64,000 bases of DNA, from the NCBI GenBank assembly GCA_050014195.1, contig JBEKDT010000020.1:1-64000 (forward strand), in the 5' to 3' direction. The position numbers and the translations under genes were made by a program. The notes under the pieces are model-generated. The model had not been told where the DNA came from. It worked only from the letters and a program-made list of their open reading frames with translations, and did not search any database. Of this stretch, positions 1,784 through 7,545 are shown one piece after another; the first letter of the stretch is position 1; the number at the start of each line of letters is the position of its first letter. The stretch comes from Desulfomonilia bacterium (lineage in GTDB: Bacteria > Desulfobacterota > Desulfomonilia > UBA1062).

Positions 1784-3181
1784 TTACCTGCGCCTGAACA
1801 GGTTCCAGTCAAGGTCGGGCCAGGGGTTGTCCACATCCTCGATCTGCTGCAGCGCCGCCTCTGAAAGCCTGCCATGGTCCGAGAGGTCCTTTGCGGCCCA
1901 GATGAGTTTCAAAAATCGCTGGTGGTGATGGTGGAAGCGCTGGTTGGCATATTCCTTGGCCTGGGTCGTAAAGAGGAGAAAGGGCCAGTCGCTTCCCTGC
2001 ATGAGGAGAAGCTCACGGGCCATCTGCCGCATGATGCGCTCTCCGCGATCATCGTTCGGCCGCACCTCTTTGAACAGCTGCTCCGCCTCTCTGGAACTCG
2101 CATTGATGTAGGGCCAGATCCAGCCGTGTTCGGGATTCTGCCAGACCGTATAATCCGAGTTCAGCCCCCAGGTGCTGGGCTGCATGATGATGGTTGAAAA
2201 TGCCCCGCCGTGCTGATCAACGTATTCGCCCTGGGCCCTTAATGAAACAGTCTTCTCCTTATCAAGCAGCCGGTAGACCTGTTCAAGCCAGTGCACGCCT
2301 TCGTGCCACCAGTGGCCGAACAGCTCGCAGTCGTATGGGGAAACGATAATGGGCTCTGTATCAGGGATGACGGTTCGATCGAGAATGCGGGTAATGAGTG
2401 AGACGAAATGCTGCGCATGACTCTCCACACGCTCATGTGCCTTCTTGGGCTCATAGACCTGTTTATCGTCCTGCCCGGTGACTCGAGAGTAATGCAATCC
2501 CGACTCGGGGTCCTTGCGGTGGAATTCAAGATAGAAAGGGTCTCCGGGGTAGCCCTGATCAGGGGACCATACCTGTTTGCCGGTTGCCTCATTGCGCCCG
2601 AACACCGAGACACCCGATGCCAGCTTATAACCGCGAAAAATGGTGGGGGCGGCTTCCTGATGGCGGTTTTCTCTGAAGGATGCGCGTGTAATGCCGACAT
2701 TCTCCGCAAAGAAGTACTCGATCCCCTCCCCGGCAAGCCACTCATCGATGCCCTTTCTCATGCGCTGCTCTCTGACCGACCACTCTGCCGGCCTGTAGGC
2801 GCACTCGGGCAGCCAGAACCCGCGTGGTAAGCGGCCGAAATAGCGCTTGTAGGTCTCAACACCTATGCGCACCTGGGCAAAGACCATGCTGTCTGATTCC
2901 ATAAGCGGCAGAAATCCATGGGTGGCTGCCGAGGTCAGAACCTCGATCACCCCTTCGTCCTGGAGCCATTTCAAGGTGCCCAGGATATCACGATAAAAGT
3001 CAGAGGTGTAGGCCTTGTAATTACTCTCAAAAAACTCCAACCAATACCGGGCGACCGAGCACAAGGCAGGGTCCGCCTGAAAGCGCCGTATGTCATTGCG
3101 GGCACGGTGTATCTTGTCTTCCATATAGGCACAGAAACGGCCTTTCATGTACTCGTCGGCGAGCTGTTCCATAAGTATCGG
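1784..3181 (-). pseudogene. GH57 1,4-alpha-glucan branching enzyme (DUF1957), C-terminal part, interrupted by IS
   Basis: GH57 motifs ATHGFLPL, GFWLPECAY, PYDCELFGHWWHEG, ARELLLMQGSDWPF. Joins in frame (PIL-MEQLAD) with 5711-5893 once the IS is removed. Confidence 0.92.
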
Positions 3182-3189
3182 GACGAGTC
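3182..3189. repeat. Target-site duplication, left copy (gacgagtc)
   Basis: Identical 8-mer at 5711-5718, each copy abutting a TIR. Confidence 0.93.
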
Positions 3190-3199
3190 GGTAGTGGGG

Positions 3200-4153
3200 T
3201 CATAATGTGTTGCTAGTAATTAATTCTTGGATCGTCCACACATGATCCGTGATTTTTGCTTCCATGCAGGGTGTTACCTTTAGCGTCGAGTGAATCCGGC
3301 AGAAATTGTAATAGGCAAATTGAAGTGCATAAGCCCATTTCAAATTCAGCCATTTTTTACTGAAGCCATTAGTCAGGCGTGTCATTCTCCGCATTGACAT
3401 ACGAACAGTCAAGTTTTGTCTTTCAATGTGAGATGTGGACGCCCTCTCTAAATCTGGATTCCCAAAAACGGCAATCTTCTCACATCCTACACACGTACTA
3501 GGCGAATATCGAGTTTCTTTATCCGAATTGCCTTGAAAGAGCTTAATAACTTGAGCGAAGTCTACAGATTGTGAGCCGAGACTATAAACAACTGCATCTC
3601 TGTATGGGGTAAAGCCATCAGTATTGATTTGGAAATTACCTTTTGTTGCTCGTGCCAGCTTTTCAGTAAAAGCGACTGTGTCCGTTACTGTTCTATGACC
3701 AAGATGCCATGCAAGAATAAGTTTAGTATGACGCTCCATACCAATAAAGCACCAGGCGTCCCCTTTTTGATTATCATTACATGCCTTGCGCGACTTCGTA
3801 CGAGCTTTCATTCCGACATATCCCCATATTTCATCACACGCACATTCTCTGATGCTCAGACCTTTAATTTTATCTTCCATTAATTTCTCGCATCGTTGGC
3901 CAACCAAGGACAACAATGTGAGGATTGTGCGCTTTTCGACGCCCGTGATTCTCTCTGTTGTCCTAATGCTGCATCCTTCTATGAGATGTTGAATAACAGA
4001 AACGGCCTTCTCCAAAGATAAACGCATATCATCAAGTGGCCTATGGTGAGGCTCAAGAAAGGTTTTCTTACAAGAGATACAGCGGAAACGCTGTAAGCCA
4101 TGCCTATCTTTTCCAAACCTATTTGCGTTTTGATTGCAGATTGGACAATTCAT
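3200..4153 (-). CDS. IS1-family DDE transposase (single ORF: zinc ribbon + HTH + DDE)
   Basis: CPIC...QRFRCISCKKTF zinc ribbon; EGCSIRTTERITGV HTH; CDEIW, NTDGF and TSHIERQNLTVR catalytic motifs; stop codon lies inside the TIR. Confidence 0.92.
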   Translation of the reverse strand: MNCPICNQNANRFGKDRHGLQRFRCISCKKTFLEPHHRPLDDMRLSLEKAVSVIQHLIEGCSIRTTERITGVEKRTILTLLSLVGQRCEKLMEDKIKGLSIRECACDEIWGYVGMKARTKSRKACNDNQKGDAWCFIGMERHTKLILAWHLGHRTVTDTVAFTEKLARATKGNFQINTDGFTPYRDAVVYSLGSQSVDFAQVIKLFQGNSDKETRYSPSTCVGCEKIAVFGNPDLERASTSHIERQNLTVRMSMRRMTRLTNGFSKKWLNLKWAYALQFAYYNFCRIHSTLKVTPCMEAKITDHVWTIQELITSNTL

Positions 4154-4173
4154 TTTTATCACCCCTACAACAC

Positions 4174-4202
4174 ACTATTACCGTTTTGCTAAAGCATGTC
4201 AA
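4174..4202 (-). promoter_or_regulatory. Putative sigma70 promoter of the transposase
   Basis: Minus strand TTGACA-N17-AATAGT, about 20 nt before the ATG with GGGGTGAT SD. Confidence 0.5.
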
Positions 4203-4252
4203 GAAAAAAATATTGAAATATAATTTTTTTGGTGCTATAAATCCGATAAAGA

Positions 4253-4326
4253 TGGAGCCCCCGACCAGATTCGAACTGGCGTCATAAGGGTTCGGGCCCT
4301 ACGCTCTTCCATTGAGCTACGGGGGC
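4253..4326 (-). tRNA. tRNA-like gene, 74 nt, encoded CCA, atypical anticodon loop (CCCGAAC; CGA at 34-36), identity undetermined
   Basis: GCCCCCG TA GCTC AATGGAA GAGC G TAGGG CCCGAAC CCTTA TGAC GCCAG TTCGAAT CTGGT CGGGGGC T CCA: all four stems pair, with GG in the D loop and a TTCGAAT T loop. Confidence 0.85.
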
Positions 4327-4335
4327 TATAGTTAG

Positions 4336-4386
4336 AGTGGATCAAGGTAAGGATTTGCCGTCAACACCTCCTATCCTTGATCCACT
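4336..4386. other. Long inverted repeat/hairpin between the passenger gene and the tRNA
   Basis: agtggatcaaggtaagga...tcctatccttgatccact (16/18 complementary, outer 12 perfect). Confidence 0.7.
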
Positions 4387-4399
4387 TTTTATTATTAGC

Positions 4400-5245
4400 T
4401 CATTGCTGAGATCCTCCCTTGGCTGTAATAACTTTAGCTAGCCCCTCGAATAAAGCCGCTATCCTGTCTGGTTGCCAGCCCTGCATTTCTGCCATTGCCA
4501 CTTTTATATTCACTGAAAATGTTATCCCATCTACTGAGGGTGGTAATGTGTCGTTGACATTTTGCTTCGGAGGCACATCATTAGAAGGTACATCGGGAGA
4601 AGGCGGAACATTTGTTTTAACAATAGTTCCGATGGTATTTCCATTGGGTCCAGGAGGGTTTACAGCACTAGACTTTACGATATTAATCATATCTCCTTCA
4701 CGCCTTACTATTCCAGAAAAAATAAGGAATTCTACTAATATTTGCAGTGGGGATTGATATTCTTTTGTTGCAGAAGATACTGCTGCCAGTTTAGCTATCA
4801 CTTCCTTTTCTGGCAATGGAGCGAATGATAATCTGTTCCGTATTTCTGTGGCAAACCAAGTGTCTTTTATTATCGGCGAAAGCTTCAAGCCTGCGGTATC
4901 AGGTCCCCATTCATAAGCATTATTGAAAGCAAAAACAGCTTCAGATGGGGTGTATCCATTGGGTCCTTTTATAATAAGACCTATGTCAGAAAAAAATGGG
5001 TTGGCAGTTGAAATTGATGCTGGATGAACTTTGAGCATATCGGCTAATGCTTGATTCATAACGGGCTTTCTATCATTACCGCTTAATATCGCATATGCCC
5101 GTATAAGATGAACCTGCTTTTCAAAAGAAAGCCTGTCTGACGGAAGTATCTTTGATGGTTTTGGCTTCTTTATTTTTTCTTGAATGTTGAGTTTTTCGGG
5201 TTCTGCCTCTTTGAGGACCTTATTCTCTTCCTTTATTTGTTCCAT
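4400..5245 (-). CDS. Hypothetical protein, IS passenger (possible winged-helix domains + Pro-rich linker + C-terminal helix)
   Basis: 281-aa ORF with AGGAGGT SD; ALADMLKVHPASISTANPFFSDIGLI resembles a wHTH. Confidence 0.7.
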   Translation of the reverse strand: MEQIKEENKVLKEAEPEKLNIQEKIKKPKPSKILPSDRLSFEKQVHLIRAYAILSGNDRKPVMNQALADMLKVHPASISTANPFFSDIGLIIKGPNGYTPSEAVFAFNNAYEWGPDTAGLKLSPIIKDTWFATEIRNRLSFAPLPEKEVIAKLAAVSSATKEYQSPLQILVEFLIFSGIVRREGDMINIVKSSAVNPPGPNGNTIGTIVKTNVPPSPDVPSNDVPPKQNVNDTLPPSVDGITFSVNIKVAMAEMQGWQPDRIAALFEGLAKVITAKGGSQQ

Positions 5246-5380
5246 CTTTACACCTCCTATAAAGACTAAATATTGCCGTCAATTTTCTTATCGCATAGAA
5301 CCGCAAATGAGTCAAGTGGATAATCGATGCGAAGCGATGTATTGTAGGTTATTGTAGGTTGATTTAATAATTAATTAATA

Positions 5381-5635
5381 TTATTGATTATTATTCTTGT
5401 CCCATCTCGCACGAGCCGCTTTTAGGGCTATTTCTTTCCGCTGCTCAGGGAGTAATTTCTTCTTGCGAGCCTTGCCGCTCCGAAGGCCACCTCTGCGGCC
5501 AGCCTTTACTCGATAATCAAGCTTCTCTGGTTTAGGGGCTGGTTCCTGGGGAATACCATCTCGCTCAGCATCACGCCTGATTATTTGTTGAAGAGCATCA
5601 AATGCGATTTGGTTTTCATCTTTGCGCTTTGGCAT
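5381..5635 (-). CDS. Small basic protein (GGxxxGKAR...PEQRKEIAxKAAxARW motif), IS passenger
   Basis: 84-aa Lys/Arg-rich ORF; TATAAT 6 nt upstream of the ATG and no SD. Confidence 0.75.
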   Translation of the reverse strand: MPKRKDENQIAFDALQQIIRRDAERDGIPQEPAPKPEKLDYRVKAGRRGGLRSGKARKKKLLPEQRKEIALKAARARWDKNNNQ

Positions 5636-5710
5636 ATCTGCATTATAGTGAAGATCATAATAAAGTGCATCTGTTATTTTAAGGCATCAACACTCTATGA
5701 CCCCACTACC

Positions 5711-5893
5711 GACGAGTCCGATCATCATCCTTGGATGAATCCCGTCGAAATGGAGTGCGCGCATGGTCTTCAGAAGCGGGATATACGTCTCATTCATGGC
5801 CTCAAAGAGCCACTCCTCACCCGCAGGCCATACCCCTGATTTGCGGCAATAGGGGATATGGCTGTGCAGCATCAATGCAAAGATACCCTTCAT
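5711..5893 (-). pseudogene. GH57 branching enzyme, N-terminal 61 codons
   Basis: MKGIFALMLHSHIPY...GEEWLFEAMNETYIPLL (GH57 CSR-1 HSH and E-x-Y motifs); the TSD copy lies at 5711-5718. Confidence 0.92.
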
Positions 5894-6114
5894 CTATCCA
5901 TCCTTATGTATCAATCATGAGAAAGCCTTATATCCCACAGAATCGACGCCGGCCAGATGGATGTCCAAATTCAGGGCAGCCGAGGTCTTTCATCATATGT
6001 ATCCGAATATCCCTGCATCCTCTCTGCGGTTCTTGCTTGAAGCACCGAGCCTTTCGGTTTATTAAAGGTTAAGGGGCTTTAAAAGATACATTTTGTTTTA
6101 ATATCAATATCGAT

Positions 6115-6736
6115 ATGAAGCTGTCCATAAAGAGATTTTTGTATAATTATATAGTCCCCTACATGGGTCTGATTATTATTAGGCTTATTTCTATGACGTA
6201 CCGAATTATTGTCATTAATCCCGAGATTGAAAAATCTATCTTTGCTAAGGGAGAGGTGCCTGTCTATATATCATGGCATCAGCGATTTTTCCCCGGGATC
6301 ACCTTCTTTGCCGAAAGGCACCGCATCTCCATCATGATAAGCAAAAGTAAAGATGGAGACTATATTTCAAAAATCGTTCATATCCTGGGATGGACTCCGG
6401 TGAGAGGATCATCAACAAGGGGCGGGAAAGAAGCCCTTGATGAGCTCAAAAGACGTGCGCAGGAGGGGTGTACCATCGGGCATATCGTTGATGGACCCAA
6501 AGGGCCGTTCGGGGTGGTAAAACCCGGTCTTCTTGTTATCGCTCAGCATTCAGAAATGCCGATTCTTCCCGCTATTGTTTCATCCGAGAAGAGATGGGTG
6601 TTTAACAGCTGGGATAAATTTATCGTATATTGACGGCGATGAATTTGAAAGGCTCCGCCTATCCATACAGGAAAGGCTCTATGAGTTATACCAAGAGGCA
6701 AACGATTACTGGACCAAGACAAAAAACAACATATGA
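6115..6736 (+). pseudogene. DUF374 lysophospholipid acyltransferase family protein with internal deletion/frameshift
   Basis: WHQR, MISKSKDGD, VRGSSTRGG, VDGPKGP, FNSWDKF motifs; stops at 6633, and a C-terminal helix (IDGDEFERLRLSIQERL) continues in another frame to 6736. Confidence 0.7.
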
Positions 6737-6810
6737 AAAGGCATGGCTTAATTTGAGGAACATAACATGATAAAAATAATATGCGAGCACGAGATAAGGT
6801 GGGTTAACGT

Positions 6811-7545
6811 ATGTTCTTGCTTAAAAAAATAATCGGCTTTTTGCTCATGCCGATGTCTATTCTCCTTGTTCTCTTCTTCTTCGGTATTATCACACTCTGG
6901 TCAACGAAGAGGCAGCGTGCGGCAAAGATAATCCTCACGCTCACCTGCCTCCTGCTTGTGTTCCTGAGCTATGGCTTTGTATCCTATTGGCCCCTGGAGA
7001 AGCTGGAAAGCCTTTACCCGCCCCTTGATGTGAAGATGACCGGATTGAACAAGATCAACTGGGTTGTCGTGCTTGCCGGTGATGACCAAGAGACAGCGGT
7101 TCGTCTTGCAGAAGGAATACGCATCTATAGGAGCCTTCCCGGAGCAAGACTCCTTGTGTCAGGAGGAAAGGTAAACCCCACAGCCCCTGCACCTGCTTCG
7201 GAAGAGATGGCCAGGATGGCTGTAGAACTCGGTGTAAACCCTGCAGACATCGTTCAGGAAAGTATATCAAGGGATACCAAGGATGAGGCGAAGATCATCA
7301 AATCGATGCTCGGTGAAAAGCAGTTTATCCTGGTGACATCAGCTTATCATATGCCGCGCTCCATGGCACTCTTCATGGCACAGGGCATGCGACCAAACCC
7401 GGCTCCGACAGGGTTCCTCATAAAAGAGGCTAACCATCTTTCCCCTGTCCGGTTCTTCCCGAGTGCAGAGAGTATCCATGATGCCGAGCTCGTTGTTCAC
7501 GAGATCCTTGGTATTCTCAGTGCCAGGATCATGGGGCAACTGTAA
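6811..7545 (+). CDS. YdcF/ElyC (DUF218) family envelope protein
   Basis: N-terminal TMs; VVLAG, LLVSGG, ESISRDTKDEA, LVTSAYHMPRS, HEILG motifs. Confidence 0.88.
   Translation: MFLLKKIIGFLLMPMSILLVLFFFGIITLWSTKRQRAAKIILTLTCLLLVFLSYGFVSYWPLEKLESLYPPLDVKMTGLNKINWVVVLAGDDQETAVRLAEGIRIYRSLPGARLLVSGGKVNPTAPAPASEEMARMAVELGVNPADIVQESISRDTKDEAKIIKSMLGEKQFILVTSAYHMPRSMALFMAQGMRPNPAPTGFLIKEANHLSPVRFFPSAESIHDAELVVHEILGILSARIMGQL

Follow-up and report, generated by a model that had tools for sequence, protein, structure and literature searches.

Transfer RNAs (tRNAs) whose anticodon disagrees with the identity of their body have been described from soil Acidobacteria and from soil and peat metagenomes, and these allo-tRNAs and irregular tRNAs sometimes stand in tandem and may have extra-long variable arms or D-arms like those of selenocysteine tRNA (tRNA-Sec) (Mukai et al. 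2017, NAR, PMC5389517; here and below we refer to the accessible part of its text). According to that report, allo-tRNAs are marked by an 8/4 or 9/3 acceptor/T-stem, a long variable arm and a Sec-like D-arm; in E. coli they were processed, charged by body identity and used in decoding by anticodon, and their induction led to growth arrest and death (PMC5389517). Some of these tRNAs were active and toxic missense suppressors in that host, others were inactive and some were charged yet unused in translation; irregular tRNA polycistrons were present in peat and forest metatranscriptomes, and in soil metagenomes irregular and allo-tRNAs had transposon-related genes and toxin-antitoxin loci in their vicinity (PMC5389517). 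Insertion sequences (ISs) that carry passenger genes have been named transporter ISs, or tIS, as the accessible part of another account has it (PMC7986276). Here we analyzed a stretch of 64,000 nucleotides from a Desulfomonilia bacterium (contig JBEKDT010000020.1, positions 1 to 64,000, assembly GCA_050014195.1; hereafter the window) and found in it an IS1-like transporter IS that consists of a backbone, namely a small basic protein (p84) and a transposase, and of a separable passenger module, namely a 281-residue protein (p281), a stem-loop and an irregular tRNA. For the module we tentatively favor a role in which the tRNA acts in trans as a non-cognate tRNA with p281 as its partner, a reading that we consider plausible and hold with reserve.

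The element shares with transporter ISs of the IS1595 family and of the ISMhu11 group of IS1 a DDE transposase whose N-terminus is a zinc ribbon, short inverted repeats, a target duplication of 8 bp and additional genes between the ends; unlike them, it has a tRNA gene and a conserved RNA hairpin among its passengers, and the passenger module occurs in two transposase families. Phages and integrative elements also carry tRNA genes of their own. There the tRNAs are as a rule cognate, and they supply codon readers or help to evade tRNA-targeting defenses, whereas in the window a 2.5-kb IS carries a tRNA with C at position 33 and a mismatch of anticodon and body. The module tRNAs resemble allo-tRNAs in being mismatched and sometimes tandem, and at one homologous locus (L042) the acceptor stem of the RNA measures 9 bp and its D-stem, which bears a tetraloop, 6 bp; the window tRNA, in contrast, is a plain 7/5 class I cloverleaf without a long variable arm. 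The conserved partner protein, the hairpin upstream of the tRNA and the place inside the repeats of IS1 and IS1595 elements distinguish the locus from what the accessible text of Mukai et al. describes (PMC5389517). We found no account in the literature of a tRNA-bearing IS, of the p281 family, of the hairpin or of a placement within IS1 or IS1595 elements, and Figures 4A, S5 and S6 of PMC5389517 may already show some of these loci. Already known, as far as the accessible texts go, are the irregular tRNA class with its loose link to transposons and toxin-antitoxin loci (PMC5389517) and the passenger-gene IS (PMC7986276). An earlier note on this DNA had known of no description of a tRNA passenger inside a simple IS, which holds in part, since transposon-linked irregular tRNAs as such were reported in 2017 (PMC5389517).

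The element spans positions 3190-5710 of the window (2,521 bp), with all of its genes on the minus strand. Its two terminal inverted repeats (TIRs) agree at 21 of 23 positions and are flanked by identical 8-bp repeats, and in-silico excision of 3190-5717 (the element and one repeat copy) joins the flanking pieces into a single open reading frame (ORF) of 526 aa. It is therefore a genuine insertion with a target-site duplication and no chance repeat, and the complete ends that the earlier note had read are borne out. Target duplications in the IS1 family measure 8-9 bp. The interrupted gene matches Pfam Glyco_hydro_57 (106 bits) and BE_C (82.6 bits); its 5' part alone covers positions 1-37 of the Glyco_hydro_57 profile at 20.3 bits, slightly under the cut-off of 21.2. 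There is one copy of the element in its own genome (4.2 Mb, 29 contigs), at a G+C content of 41.5% against 50.2% for the genome. Three metagenome contigs (L003-L005) are identical to the window and have the same insertion site, as have contigs from four DNA sequencing runs on peat or wetland samples. Among the contigs of those four runs, none was seen to span an empty site (an intact allele of the interrupted gene), and no RNA run was among the sequencing runs listed as holding the element. The insertion thus disrupts the branching-enzyme gene in all of these sources, the genome as well as the three metagenome contigs and the contigs of the four runs.

Fifteen distinct loci that have a p281 homolog and at least 240 nt past its stop codon were compared: the window, L007-L017, L041, L042 and L046. 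Left out of this count were L003-L005, L006 (only 93 nt past the stop), L018, L019 and L047 (partial matches at contig ends or fragments) and L043-L045 (weak matches, E 1e-9 to 1e-11). A long hairpin without a U-tract starts within about 25 nt of the p281 stop in 12 of the 15 loci (not in L014, L016 and L017), and equivalent hairpins were found in L006 and L027, outside the count. A tRNA above the Rfam gathering score is present in eight loci, namely the window, L007, L008, L009, L010 (two), L012, L015 (two RNAs) and L046, and its 5' end lies 3-17 nt past the hairpin. Two further loci have a weak tRNA-like fold: that of L042 scores 29.8 bits (E 0.04) on the tRNA-Sec model, and that of L041, with an 8-bp acceptor stem and an ACCA end, has no Rfam match. 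The closest p281 homolog (52% identity) is that of L006, where the hairpin and 26 nt of the tRNA 5' part precede the contig end; the acceptor strand in this part equals that of the window tRNA, and by inspection three D-stem pairs have undergone compensatory changes. Because of these changes, and because an anticodon (UGG) is kept in six module tRNAs despite stem differences, the tRNA fold is, on comparative evidence, under selection.

The module lies inside identified inverted repeats in two IS1 elements (window and L041) and two IS1595 elements (L008 and L013). Perfect 25-bp inverted repeats (1198-1222 and 3528-3552) enclose the p281 homolog, the hairpin, the tRNA and a convergent IS1595 transposase in L008, and 25-bp repeats with a 96% match enclose the p281 homolog, the hairpin and an IS1595 transposase in L013. 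In L041, p84, p281, the hairpin, the tRNA-like RNA and an IS1-like transposase 41% identical to that of the window are bounded by 19-bp repeats (95% match); the gene order of L042 is the same, and no inverted repeats were identified there. Fragments of IS1595 transposases stand at the ends of L007 and L046, and the transposase of L009 is of the DDE_Tnp_1/DUF772 type; overall, a transposase gene adjoins the module in 8 of the 15 loci. Hairpin and tRNA or tRNA-like RNA are present in all four IS1-type p281 elements (window, L006, L041 and L042). The earlier note had taken the tRNA for part of the mobilized cargo, and it is indeed no one-off capture: the order small basic protein, 281-aa protein, hairpin, tRNA or tRNA-like RNA, transposase is kept in L006, L041 and L042 (p281 homologs 35-52%, transposases 41-43% identical), and the unit recurs in the IS1595-type L008 and L013.

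The other small protein behaves differently. At E<=1e-3 p84 has 141 homologs; many share 60-74% identity with it, and their sources either give them no name or call them 'hypothetical protein'. A profile built from 44 of these matched 10 IS1-type loci (window, L021-L024, L026-L028, L041 and L042) and also L006, whose contig stops before any transposase, and no match was found in any IS1595-type locus; in L026 and L027, p84 is the first gene inside the inverted repeat. Since it is present in 10 IS1-type loci with differing cargo, p84 is, judged by gene content, a backbone component of this IS1 subgroup that travels with the transposase regardless of the middle cargo. That cargo, between p84 and the transposase, is a DUF5343 protein in L023, a 273-aa protein without a Pfam match (helix-turn-helix-like by eye only) in L021, and proteins of 152-180 aa, one with an AbiEi-type winged helix, in L022, L024 and L030; Bro-N occurs in L024, P63C in L025 and L026, and a helix-turn-helix protein with ImmA/IrrE in L028. 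Homology of the alternative cargo to p281 found no support (hhalign probabilities 0.2-1.0%), the only hint of kinship being a 33-column C-terminal match to the L023 DUF5343 protein (E 0.053).

These results divide what the earlier note had proposed as a single three-part system. p281, hairpin and tRNA do co-occur, whereas p84 follows the IS1-type transposase in 10 loci while the middle cargo swaps, and none of the IS1595-type loci yielded it. The note had also allowed that related elements might lack the tRNA. This is so for five that rank among the closest transposase relatives examined (L021-L024 and L026, 54-75% identical), which have other cargo and no tRNA, and not so for L006, L041 and L042, which keep a tRNA or tRNA-like RNA. 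The intact transposase, the 84-aa and 281-aa ORFs, the hairpin and the CCA-ending tRNA that it had listed are all present (Table 1).

Table 1. Coordinates of the IS1-like element, its passengers and its insertion site in the window
Feature	Position	Strand	Remarks
GH57 (glycoside hydrolase family 57) 1,4-alpha-glucan branching enzyme gene, 3' part	1784..3172	minus	
Target-site duplication, copy 1	3182..3189		8 bp, same as 5711-5718
TIR, transposase-proximal end	3190..3212		23 bp
IS1-like transposase	3200..4162	minus	single ORF, 320 aa; probable start ATG at 4153
Promoter-like site for transposase	4174..4202	minus	overlaps TIR-like motif; consensus scan 10/12
Irregular tRNA	4253..4326	minus	74 nt, 7/5 cloverleaf, anticodon CGA, C33, U73, encoded CCA
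Stem-loop	4337..4385	minus	14 nt past p281 stop, 10 nt before tRNA
p281	4400..5245	minus	281 aa
p84	5381..5635	minus	84-aa basic protein
Promoter-like site upstream of p84	5654..5682	minus	consensus scan 9/12; putative function
GH57 gene, 5' part	5687..5893	minus	in frame with 1784-3172 once element removed
TIR, p84-proximal end	5688..5710		23 bp
Target-site duplication, copy 2	5711..5718		8 bp

The tRNA of the window, which ARAGORN calls Ser(CGA), scores 59 bits on Rfam RF00005 (gathering score 29, E 1.5e-11) and has a class I body with a 4-nt variable loop, a 4-bp D-stem and normal D- and T-loops. The label 'Ser' follows from the anticodon CGA alone. The closest host tRNAs are three tRNA-Arg (CCG, ACG and CCT; 74-77% identity), and by inspection the anticodon loop resembles the Arg CCG loop without its U33. 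The host encodes its own 91-nt tRNA-Ser(CGA), and its tRNA-Ser genes measure 88-93 nt, each with a long variable arm. Seryl-tRNA synthetase (SerRS) requires this arm as its main identity element; since the window tRNA has none, its serylation is unlikely on structural grounds. We rejected it as a canonical elongator tRNA-Ser because of its 4-nt variable loop without a long arm, as a canonical elongator of any kind because of C33 in place of U33, and as an allo-tRNA proper because of its 7/5 geometry, 4-bp D-stem and short variable loop. It fits the loose class of irregular, missense-suppressor-type tRNAs, with an Arg-like class I body and a CGA anticodon. Elsewhere in the genome, contigs C1 and C4 carry four genes for tRNA-Gln, three with CUG and one with UUG, whose U1-A72/G73 features are normal, and contig C14 one doubtful 92-nt ARAGORN call.

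The disagreement of anticodon and body extends to the other loci. The tRNAs of L007, L008, L009, L012 and L046 and the second tRNA of L010 have a class II body with a tRNA-Leu-type D-arm and A73, and the Pro anticodon UGG; the second tRNA of L015 is class II and Ser-like with the Ala anticodon UGC, and the first of L010 is class I with the anticodon UUG (the anticodons of L046 and of the second tRNAs of L010 and L015 were read by inspection). In bacteria a class II body belongs to Leu, Ser or Tyr tRNAs. By class alone, 8 of the 9 cloverleaf tRNAs with 7-nt loops are mismatched: their anticodon is that of Pro or Ala where the body is class II, or that of Ser where it is class I. UGG is kept in all six class II Pro-anticodon tRNAs, in canonical U33/R37 loops, while acceptor and anticodon stems differ; as L009 and L012 are close, the six count as about five lineages. 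Three RNAs, those of L041 and L042 and the first of L015, retain the acceptor/T-arm minihelix next to a degenerate anticodon arm, and the ACCA end is encoded in L041 and L015, not in L042.

Some copies have surroundings of their own. Small divergent genes lie upstream of the p281 homologs in L010 (3-260), where the product matches MazE-like antitoxins at 24.8 bits, and in L015 (2-223), where it is RelE/Gp49-like by eye and has no Pfam match; both echo the association of irregular tRNAs with toxin-antitoxin loci in the accessible text of PMC5389517. An IMG/VR contig filed as viral (L046:5058-6033) contains a truncated p281 homolog (C-terminal 142 aa) together with the hairpin, a UGG tRNA of 103 nt and a fragment of an IS1595 transposase. 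An Acido-Lenti-1 RNA (RF01687, 61.1 bits) occupies L045:2151-2196, close to a distant p281-like match, in genome G563, which belongs to the phylum searched around G401.

The stem-loop of the window forms 19 pairs at -28.3 kcal/mol (z = -6.8), and none of 200 shuffled sequences folds equally well. As an intrinsic terminator it was rejected, since no T-run follows the stem and a terminator scan does not list it. Across loci the hairpins have 13-20 pairs and energies of -19.6 to -33.6 kcal/mol; L014 and L017 show no significant fold, and the hairpin of L016 is terminator-like with a U-run, the only such case. Stem sequences vary from locus to locus, most tips have a U-G-closed UGSC-type tetraloop, and 14 hairpins hold 22 sense-strand G-U pairs. 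Because of the common tetraloop and the sense-strand G-U pairs, we favor an RNA-level element. Rfam holds no family for the hairpin. Hairpins were judged by per-sequence folds, as MAFFT alignments lose the stem register where internal loops differ; RNAalifold on the aligned hairpins gives seven consensus pairs, six of them with compensatory changes.

p281 matched no family in Pfam, NCBIfam, PHROG or PADLOC. For the roles that the earlier note had suggested (toxin with RNA antitoxin, anti-phage module or translation modulator), PADLOC likewise returned nothing. An exhaustive HMMER scan returned homologs in 779 representative clusters at E<=1e-3, 519 at 1e-10 and 179 at 1e-30. Among 401 species-representative genomes of its own phylum, p281 occurs in the genome of the window only; it occurs in 5 of 401 genomes (two strongly) of the phylum of G401, a Blastocatellia-labelled metagenome-assembled genome (MAG), in 1 of 39 genomes of the order of G568, in none of five genomes that hold IS1 relatives, and at two loci on viral contigs. 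Since the family is large yet rare in species-representative genomes, this patchy spread fits a mobile gene. No longer or fused forms were found among 8,000 candidates scored, which is weak evidence.

In the AlphaFold2 (AF2) model of p281 (predicted local distance difference test, pLDDT, 85; 102-row alignment), two winged-helix units at about residues 40-190 are joined by a Pro-rich, disordered linker to a conserved helix near the C-terminus (259-277). Residues 26-195 align over 155-161 residues with the DNA-recognition domains of N.BspD6I, FokI and BpuJI (Z 8.0-8.8), and Foldseek also lists SelB winged helices bound to selenocysteine insertion sequence (SECIS) RNA (E 1e-4, template-modelling score 0.2-0.4); a sequence search of solved structures found no similarity (best E 0.57). 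p281 thus shares the tandem winged-helix arrangement of the recognition domain with the type IIS enzymes and, loosely, with the SelB/SECIS/tRNA-Sec system a tandem winged helix (about 26-195) and a hairpin and unusual tRNA beside the gene. Unlike SelB and the type IIS enzymes it has no GTPase or nuclease domain: the model lacks a GTPase domain and no GTPase family matched in Pfam or NCBIfam, so that a SelB-like protein is not what was found. From the model we read p281 as a nucleic-acid-binding protein, of DNA or of RNA.

The course of events that we infer as most likely would begin with p84, p281, the stem-loop and the tRNA being transcribed together from the promoter-like site in the p84-proximal end. 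RNase P would cut about 10 nt past the stem-loop, releasing the CCA-ended tRNA and leaving a p281 mRNA capped by the stem-loop. The released tRNA would then act in trans, its Arg-like class I body reading the Ser codon UCG; it would be a non-cognate adaptor, since it lacks the long variable arm needed by SerRS, and probably a weak one because of C33, and it might either mis-decode or titrate translation factors. p281 would be its dedicated nucleic-acid-binding partner, a regulator or sequestering factor, and the pair would give the element a selfish benefit, in retention or expression control, rather than supply a missing codon reader. The systematic mismatch and the conserved UGG speak for a role in trans that depends on the anticodon.

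Several observations weigh against this proposal. No tRNA was found in 5 of the 15 p281 loci (L011, L013, L014, L016 and L017). At Rfam E<=1, IS1 relatives with other cargo, except L027, have none either, so that transposition can do without the module. L027 itself (4026-6957, from a Fimbriiglobus-labelled MAG; transposase 53% identical, 25-bp repeats) has a hairpin (4532-4578) and a 74-nt tRNA (4582-4655, 49.7 bits) between p84 and a cargo gene other than p281, and so carries the RNA pair without the supposed partner. U33 is near-universal in tRNAs, whereas the window has C33, or a 6-nt loop in an alternative register; the anticodon loop or arm is in fact aberrant in all four IS1-borne tRNAs (C33 in the window, a 6-nt loop according to ARAGORN in L027, and L041 and L042), for which a non-decoding role fits better. 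Partner genes do not avoid the codons that their tRNA would misread: p281 genes beside UGG tRNAs use CCA and CCG (4+5 in L007, 1+12 in L008), which leaves self-protection unsupported. The fold matches of p281 are middling (Z about 8) and favor DNA over RNA binding, and co-transcription is read from a simple promoter scan.

The strongest competitor, which we regard as possible although somewhat unlikely, is a punctuation or insulator signal in cis. The stem-loop and tRNA-like fold would be processing sites only, for RNase P and perhaps for RNase III on the 13-20 bp stem, and the anticodon would be irrelevant; the upstream mRNA would gain a protective 3' hairpin, and cleavage would disconnect read-through transcription from the transposase or from a convergent gene. 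Processing punctuated by tRNAs is familiar from mitochondria, from 3'-end formation of MALAT1-mascRNA and from RNase P cuts in bacterial polycistrons, and in the window a structured element and then a tRNA-like fold likewise close the 3' end of a coding RNA, with a putative role for RNase P. The fixed order, the tight spacing of hairpin and tRNA and the missing U-tract count for the cis signal; the fixed geometry suits a pure processing signal no less well than a trans-acting tRNA. The unit is always intergenic within an operon, also in L027; the minihelix outlasts the anticodon arm in three RNAs, and the aberrant loops of the four IS1-borne tRNAs point the same way. A conserved promoter-like site of the transposase's own lies directly downstream, and IS elements are known to guard against outside transcription. 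Irregular tRNAs that are charged yet unused in translation, reported in the accessible text of PMC5389517, would also suit this reading. Against it, the UGG anticodon is invariant in the six class II tRNAs of varying stems, a conservation that exceeds the needs of a cut site; neutral drift of a processing signal does not predict a systematic mismatch in eight of nine; tandem tRNA pairs (L010 and L015) are superfluous for a cut site; and the hairpin persists without a tRNA in L011 and L013.

Less probable still is a two-component selfish module whose RNA is the harmful partner. Here the mismatched, stable tRNA would jam or mis-decode translation and p281 would be its labile controller. The modelled build of p281, a DNA-binding-like tandem winged helix with a disordered linker and a conserved C-terminal helix, would be antitoxin-like, and the module, placed in small ISs of at least two families, would enforce their retention or let them reprogram decoding under stress.

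That the tRNA is a spare, either a codon reader or, like phage tRNAs, a stand-in for a host tRNA that a tRNA-cleaving toxin attacks, we consider very improbable. Its good fold and encoded CCA, the AT-richer composition of the element and the toxin-antitoxin-type genes near some copies (MazE-like in L010, and similarly in the accessible text of PMC5389517) would suit such a role. Codon supply was nevertheless rejected, as the host already has a canonical tRNA-Ser(CGA) and UCG is not enriched in the element: 5 of its 41 Ser codons are UCG, against 14.6% in 1,063 long host ORFs, so that the codon is neither enriched nor avoided. Nor is the class I body a normal SerRS substrate, and C33 and the mismatched bodies argue against faithful replacement. 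Programmed missense in the transposase was likewise unsupported; of its four UCG codons, three align with variable columns and the fourth with a column in which Ser is invariant, and none coincides with a position that requires a different residue in relatives. The least likely account, a functionless, decaying tRNA-Arg fragment captured by chance from the chromosome and next to p281 by common descent, could draw on the tRNA-Arg resemblance, the loop that seems by inspection to have lost U33 and the five loci without a tRNA, but faces an Rfam score as high as those of genuine tRNAs, the compensatory D-stem changes between the window and L006, and a hairpin-tRNA order kept across 30-50% identical p281 homologs and two transposase families.

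The remaining features concern the backbone. The transposase passes the cut-offs of Pfam DDE_Tnp_IS1 (30 bits, cut-off 24.1) and of the NCBIfam IS1/IS1595 Zn-binding domain NF050000 (36.8 bits, cut-off 28), so the IS1-family element with passenger genes of the earlier note is confirmed as IS1-like; it stays under the cut-off of Pfam Zn_ribbon_InsA (19.8 bits, cut-off 26.1). Because it also scores 85.1 bits on the NCBIfam IS1 equivalog transpos_IS1, under the cut-off of 100, the element is by these profile scores IS1-like rather than canonical IS1. Its ORF is uninterrupted and without a frameshift, and three passenger features lie between the TIRs. The ISMhu11 subgroup of IS1 is characterized by such an uninterrupted single transposase ORF and by passenger genes between the ends, and the element, which shows both, is a candidate member. 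Relatives at 50-75% identity come from MAGs labelled Nitrospira, Acidobacteriota and Fimbriiglobus and align from residue 3-4, hence the probable start in Table 1. The TIR motif of the window also bounds L026 and L027.

The -35/-10 region ahead of the transposase is kept upstream of the transposase in L021-L023, and its putative function is that of the transposase's own promoter-like site. Between p281 and the tRNA the consensus scan detected no promoter-like site. The inner part of the TIR (...TGTGTTG; 3199-3212) recurs at 4165-4190 (minus), between the -10 region and the transposase start, and a TIR-like motif also stands directly upstream of the transposase in L021-L023 and L027. As the motif recurs before the transposase start, it suggests a common binding site and autoregulation.

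For p84, the AF2 model shows three long helices (pLDDT 86, predicted template-modelling score 0.39), and PHROG gives only a weak match, to a family of unknown function (E 2.7e-4). ESM Atlas clusters that resemble p84 are auto-named 'Histone H1 family', which is a lead only. In L026 (4828-5859, minus), the P63C cargo protein starts with the basic '...GGKARA...ARW'-type motif that ends p84 (profile E 5.9e-6); judging from this sequence match, the motif may be a portable nucleic-acid-binding peptide.

Taken together, the locus gives irregular and allo-tRNAs a bounded genetic context, with a 2.5-kb IS of mapped ends as the minimal vehicle. It also supplies a conserved protein partner, p281, from a family of 779 clusters unnamed in domain libraries, and a conserved hairpin directly upstream of the tRNA. 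The question of whether such RNAs are decoders, toxins, regulators or processing signals is thereby reduced to a few clonable constructs, and the kinds of cargo carried by simple ISs are extended by an RNA gene. Should the tRNA turn out to be a functional mis-decoder under p281 control, mobile elements would be spreading regulated, deliberate violations of the genetic code.

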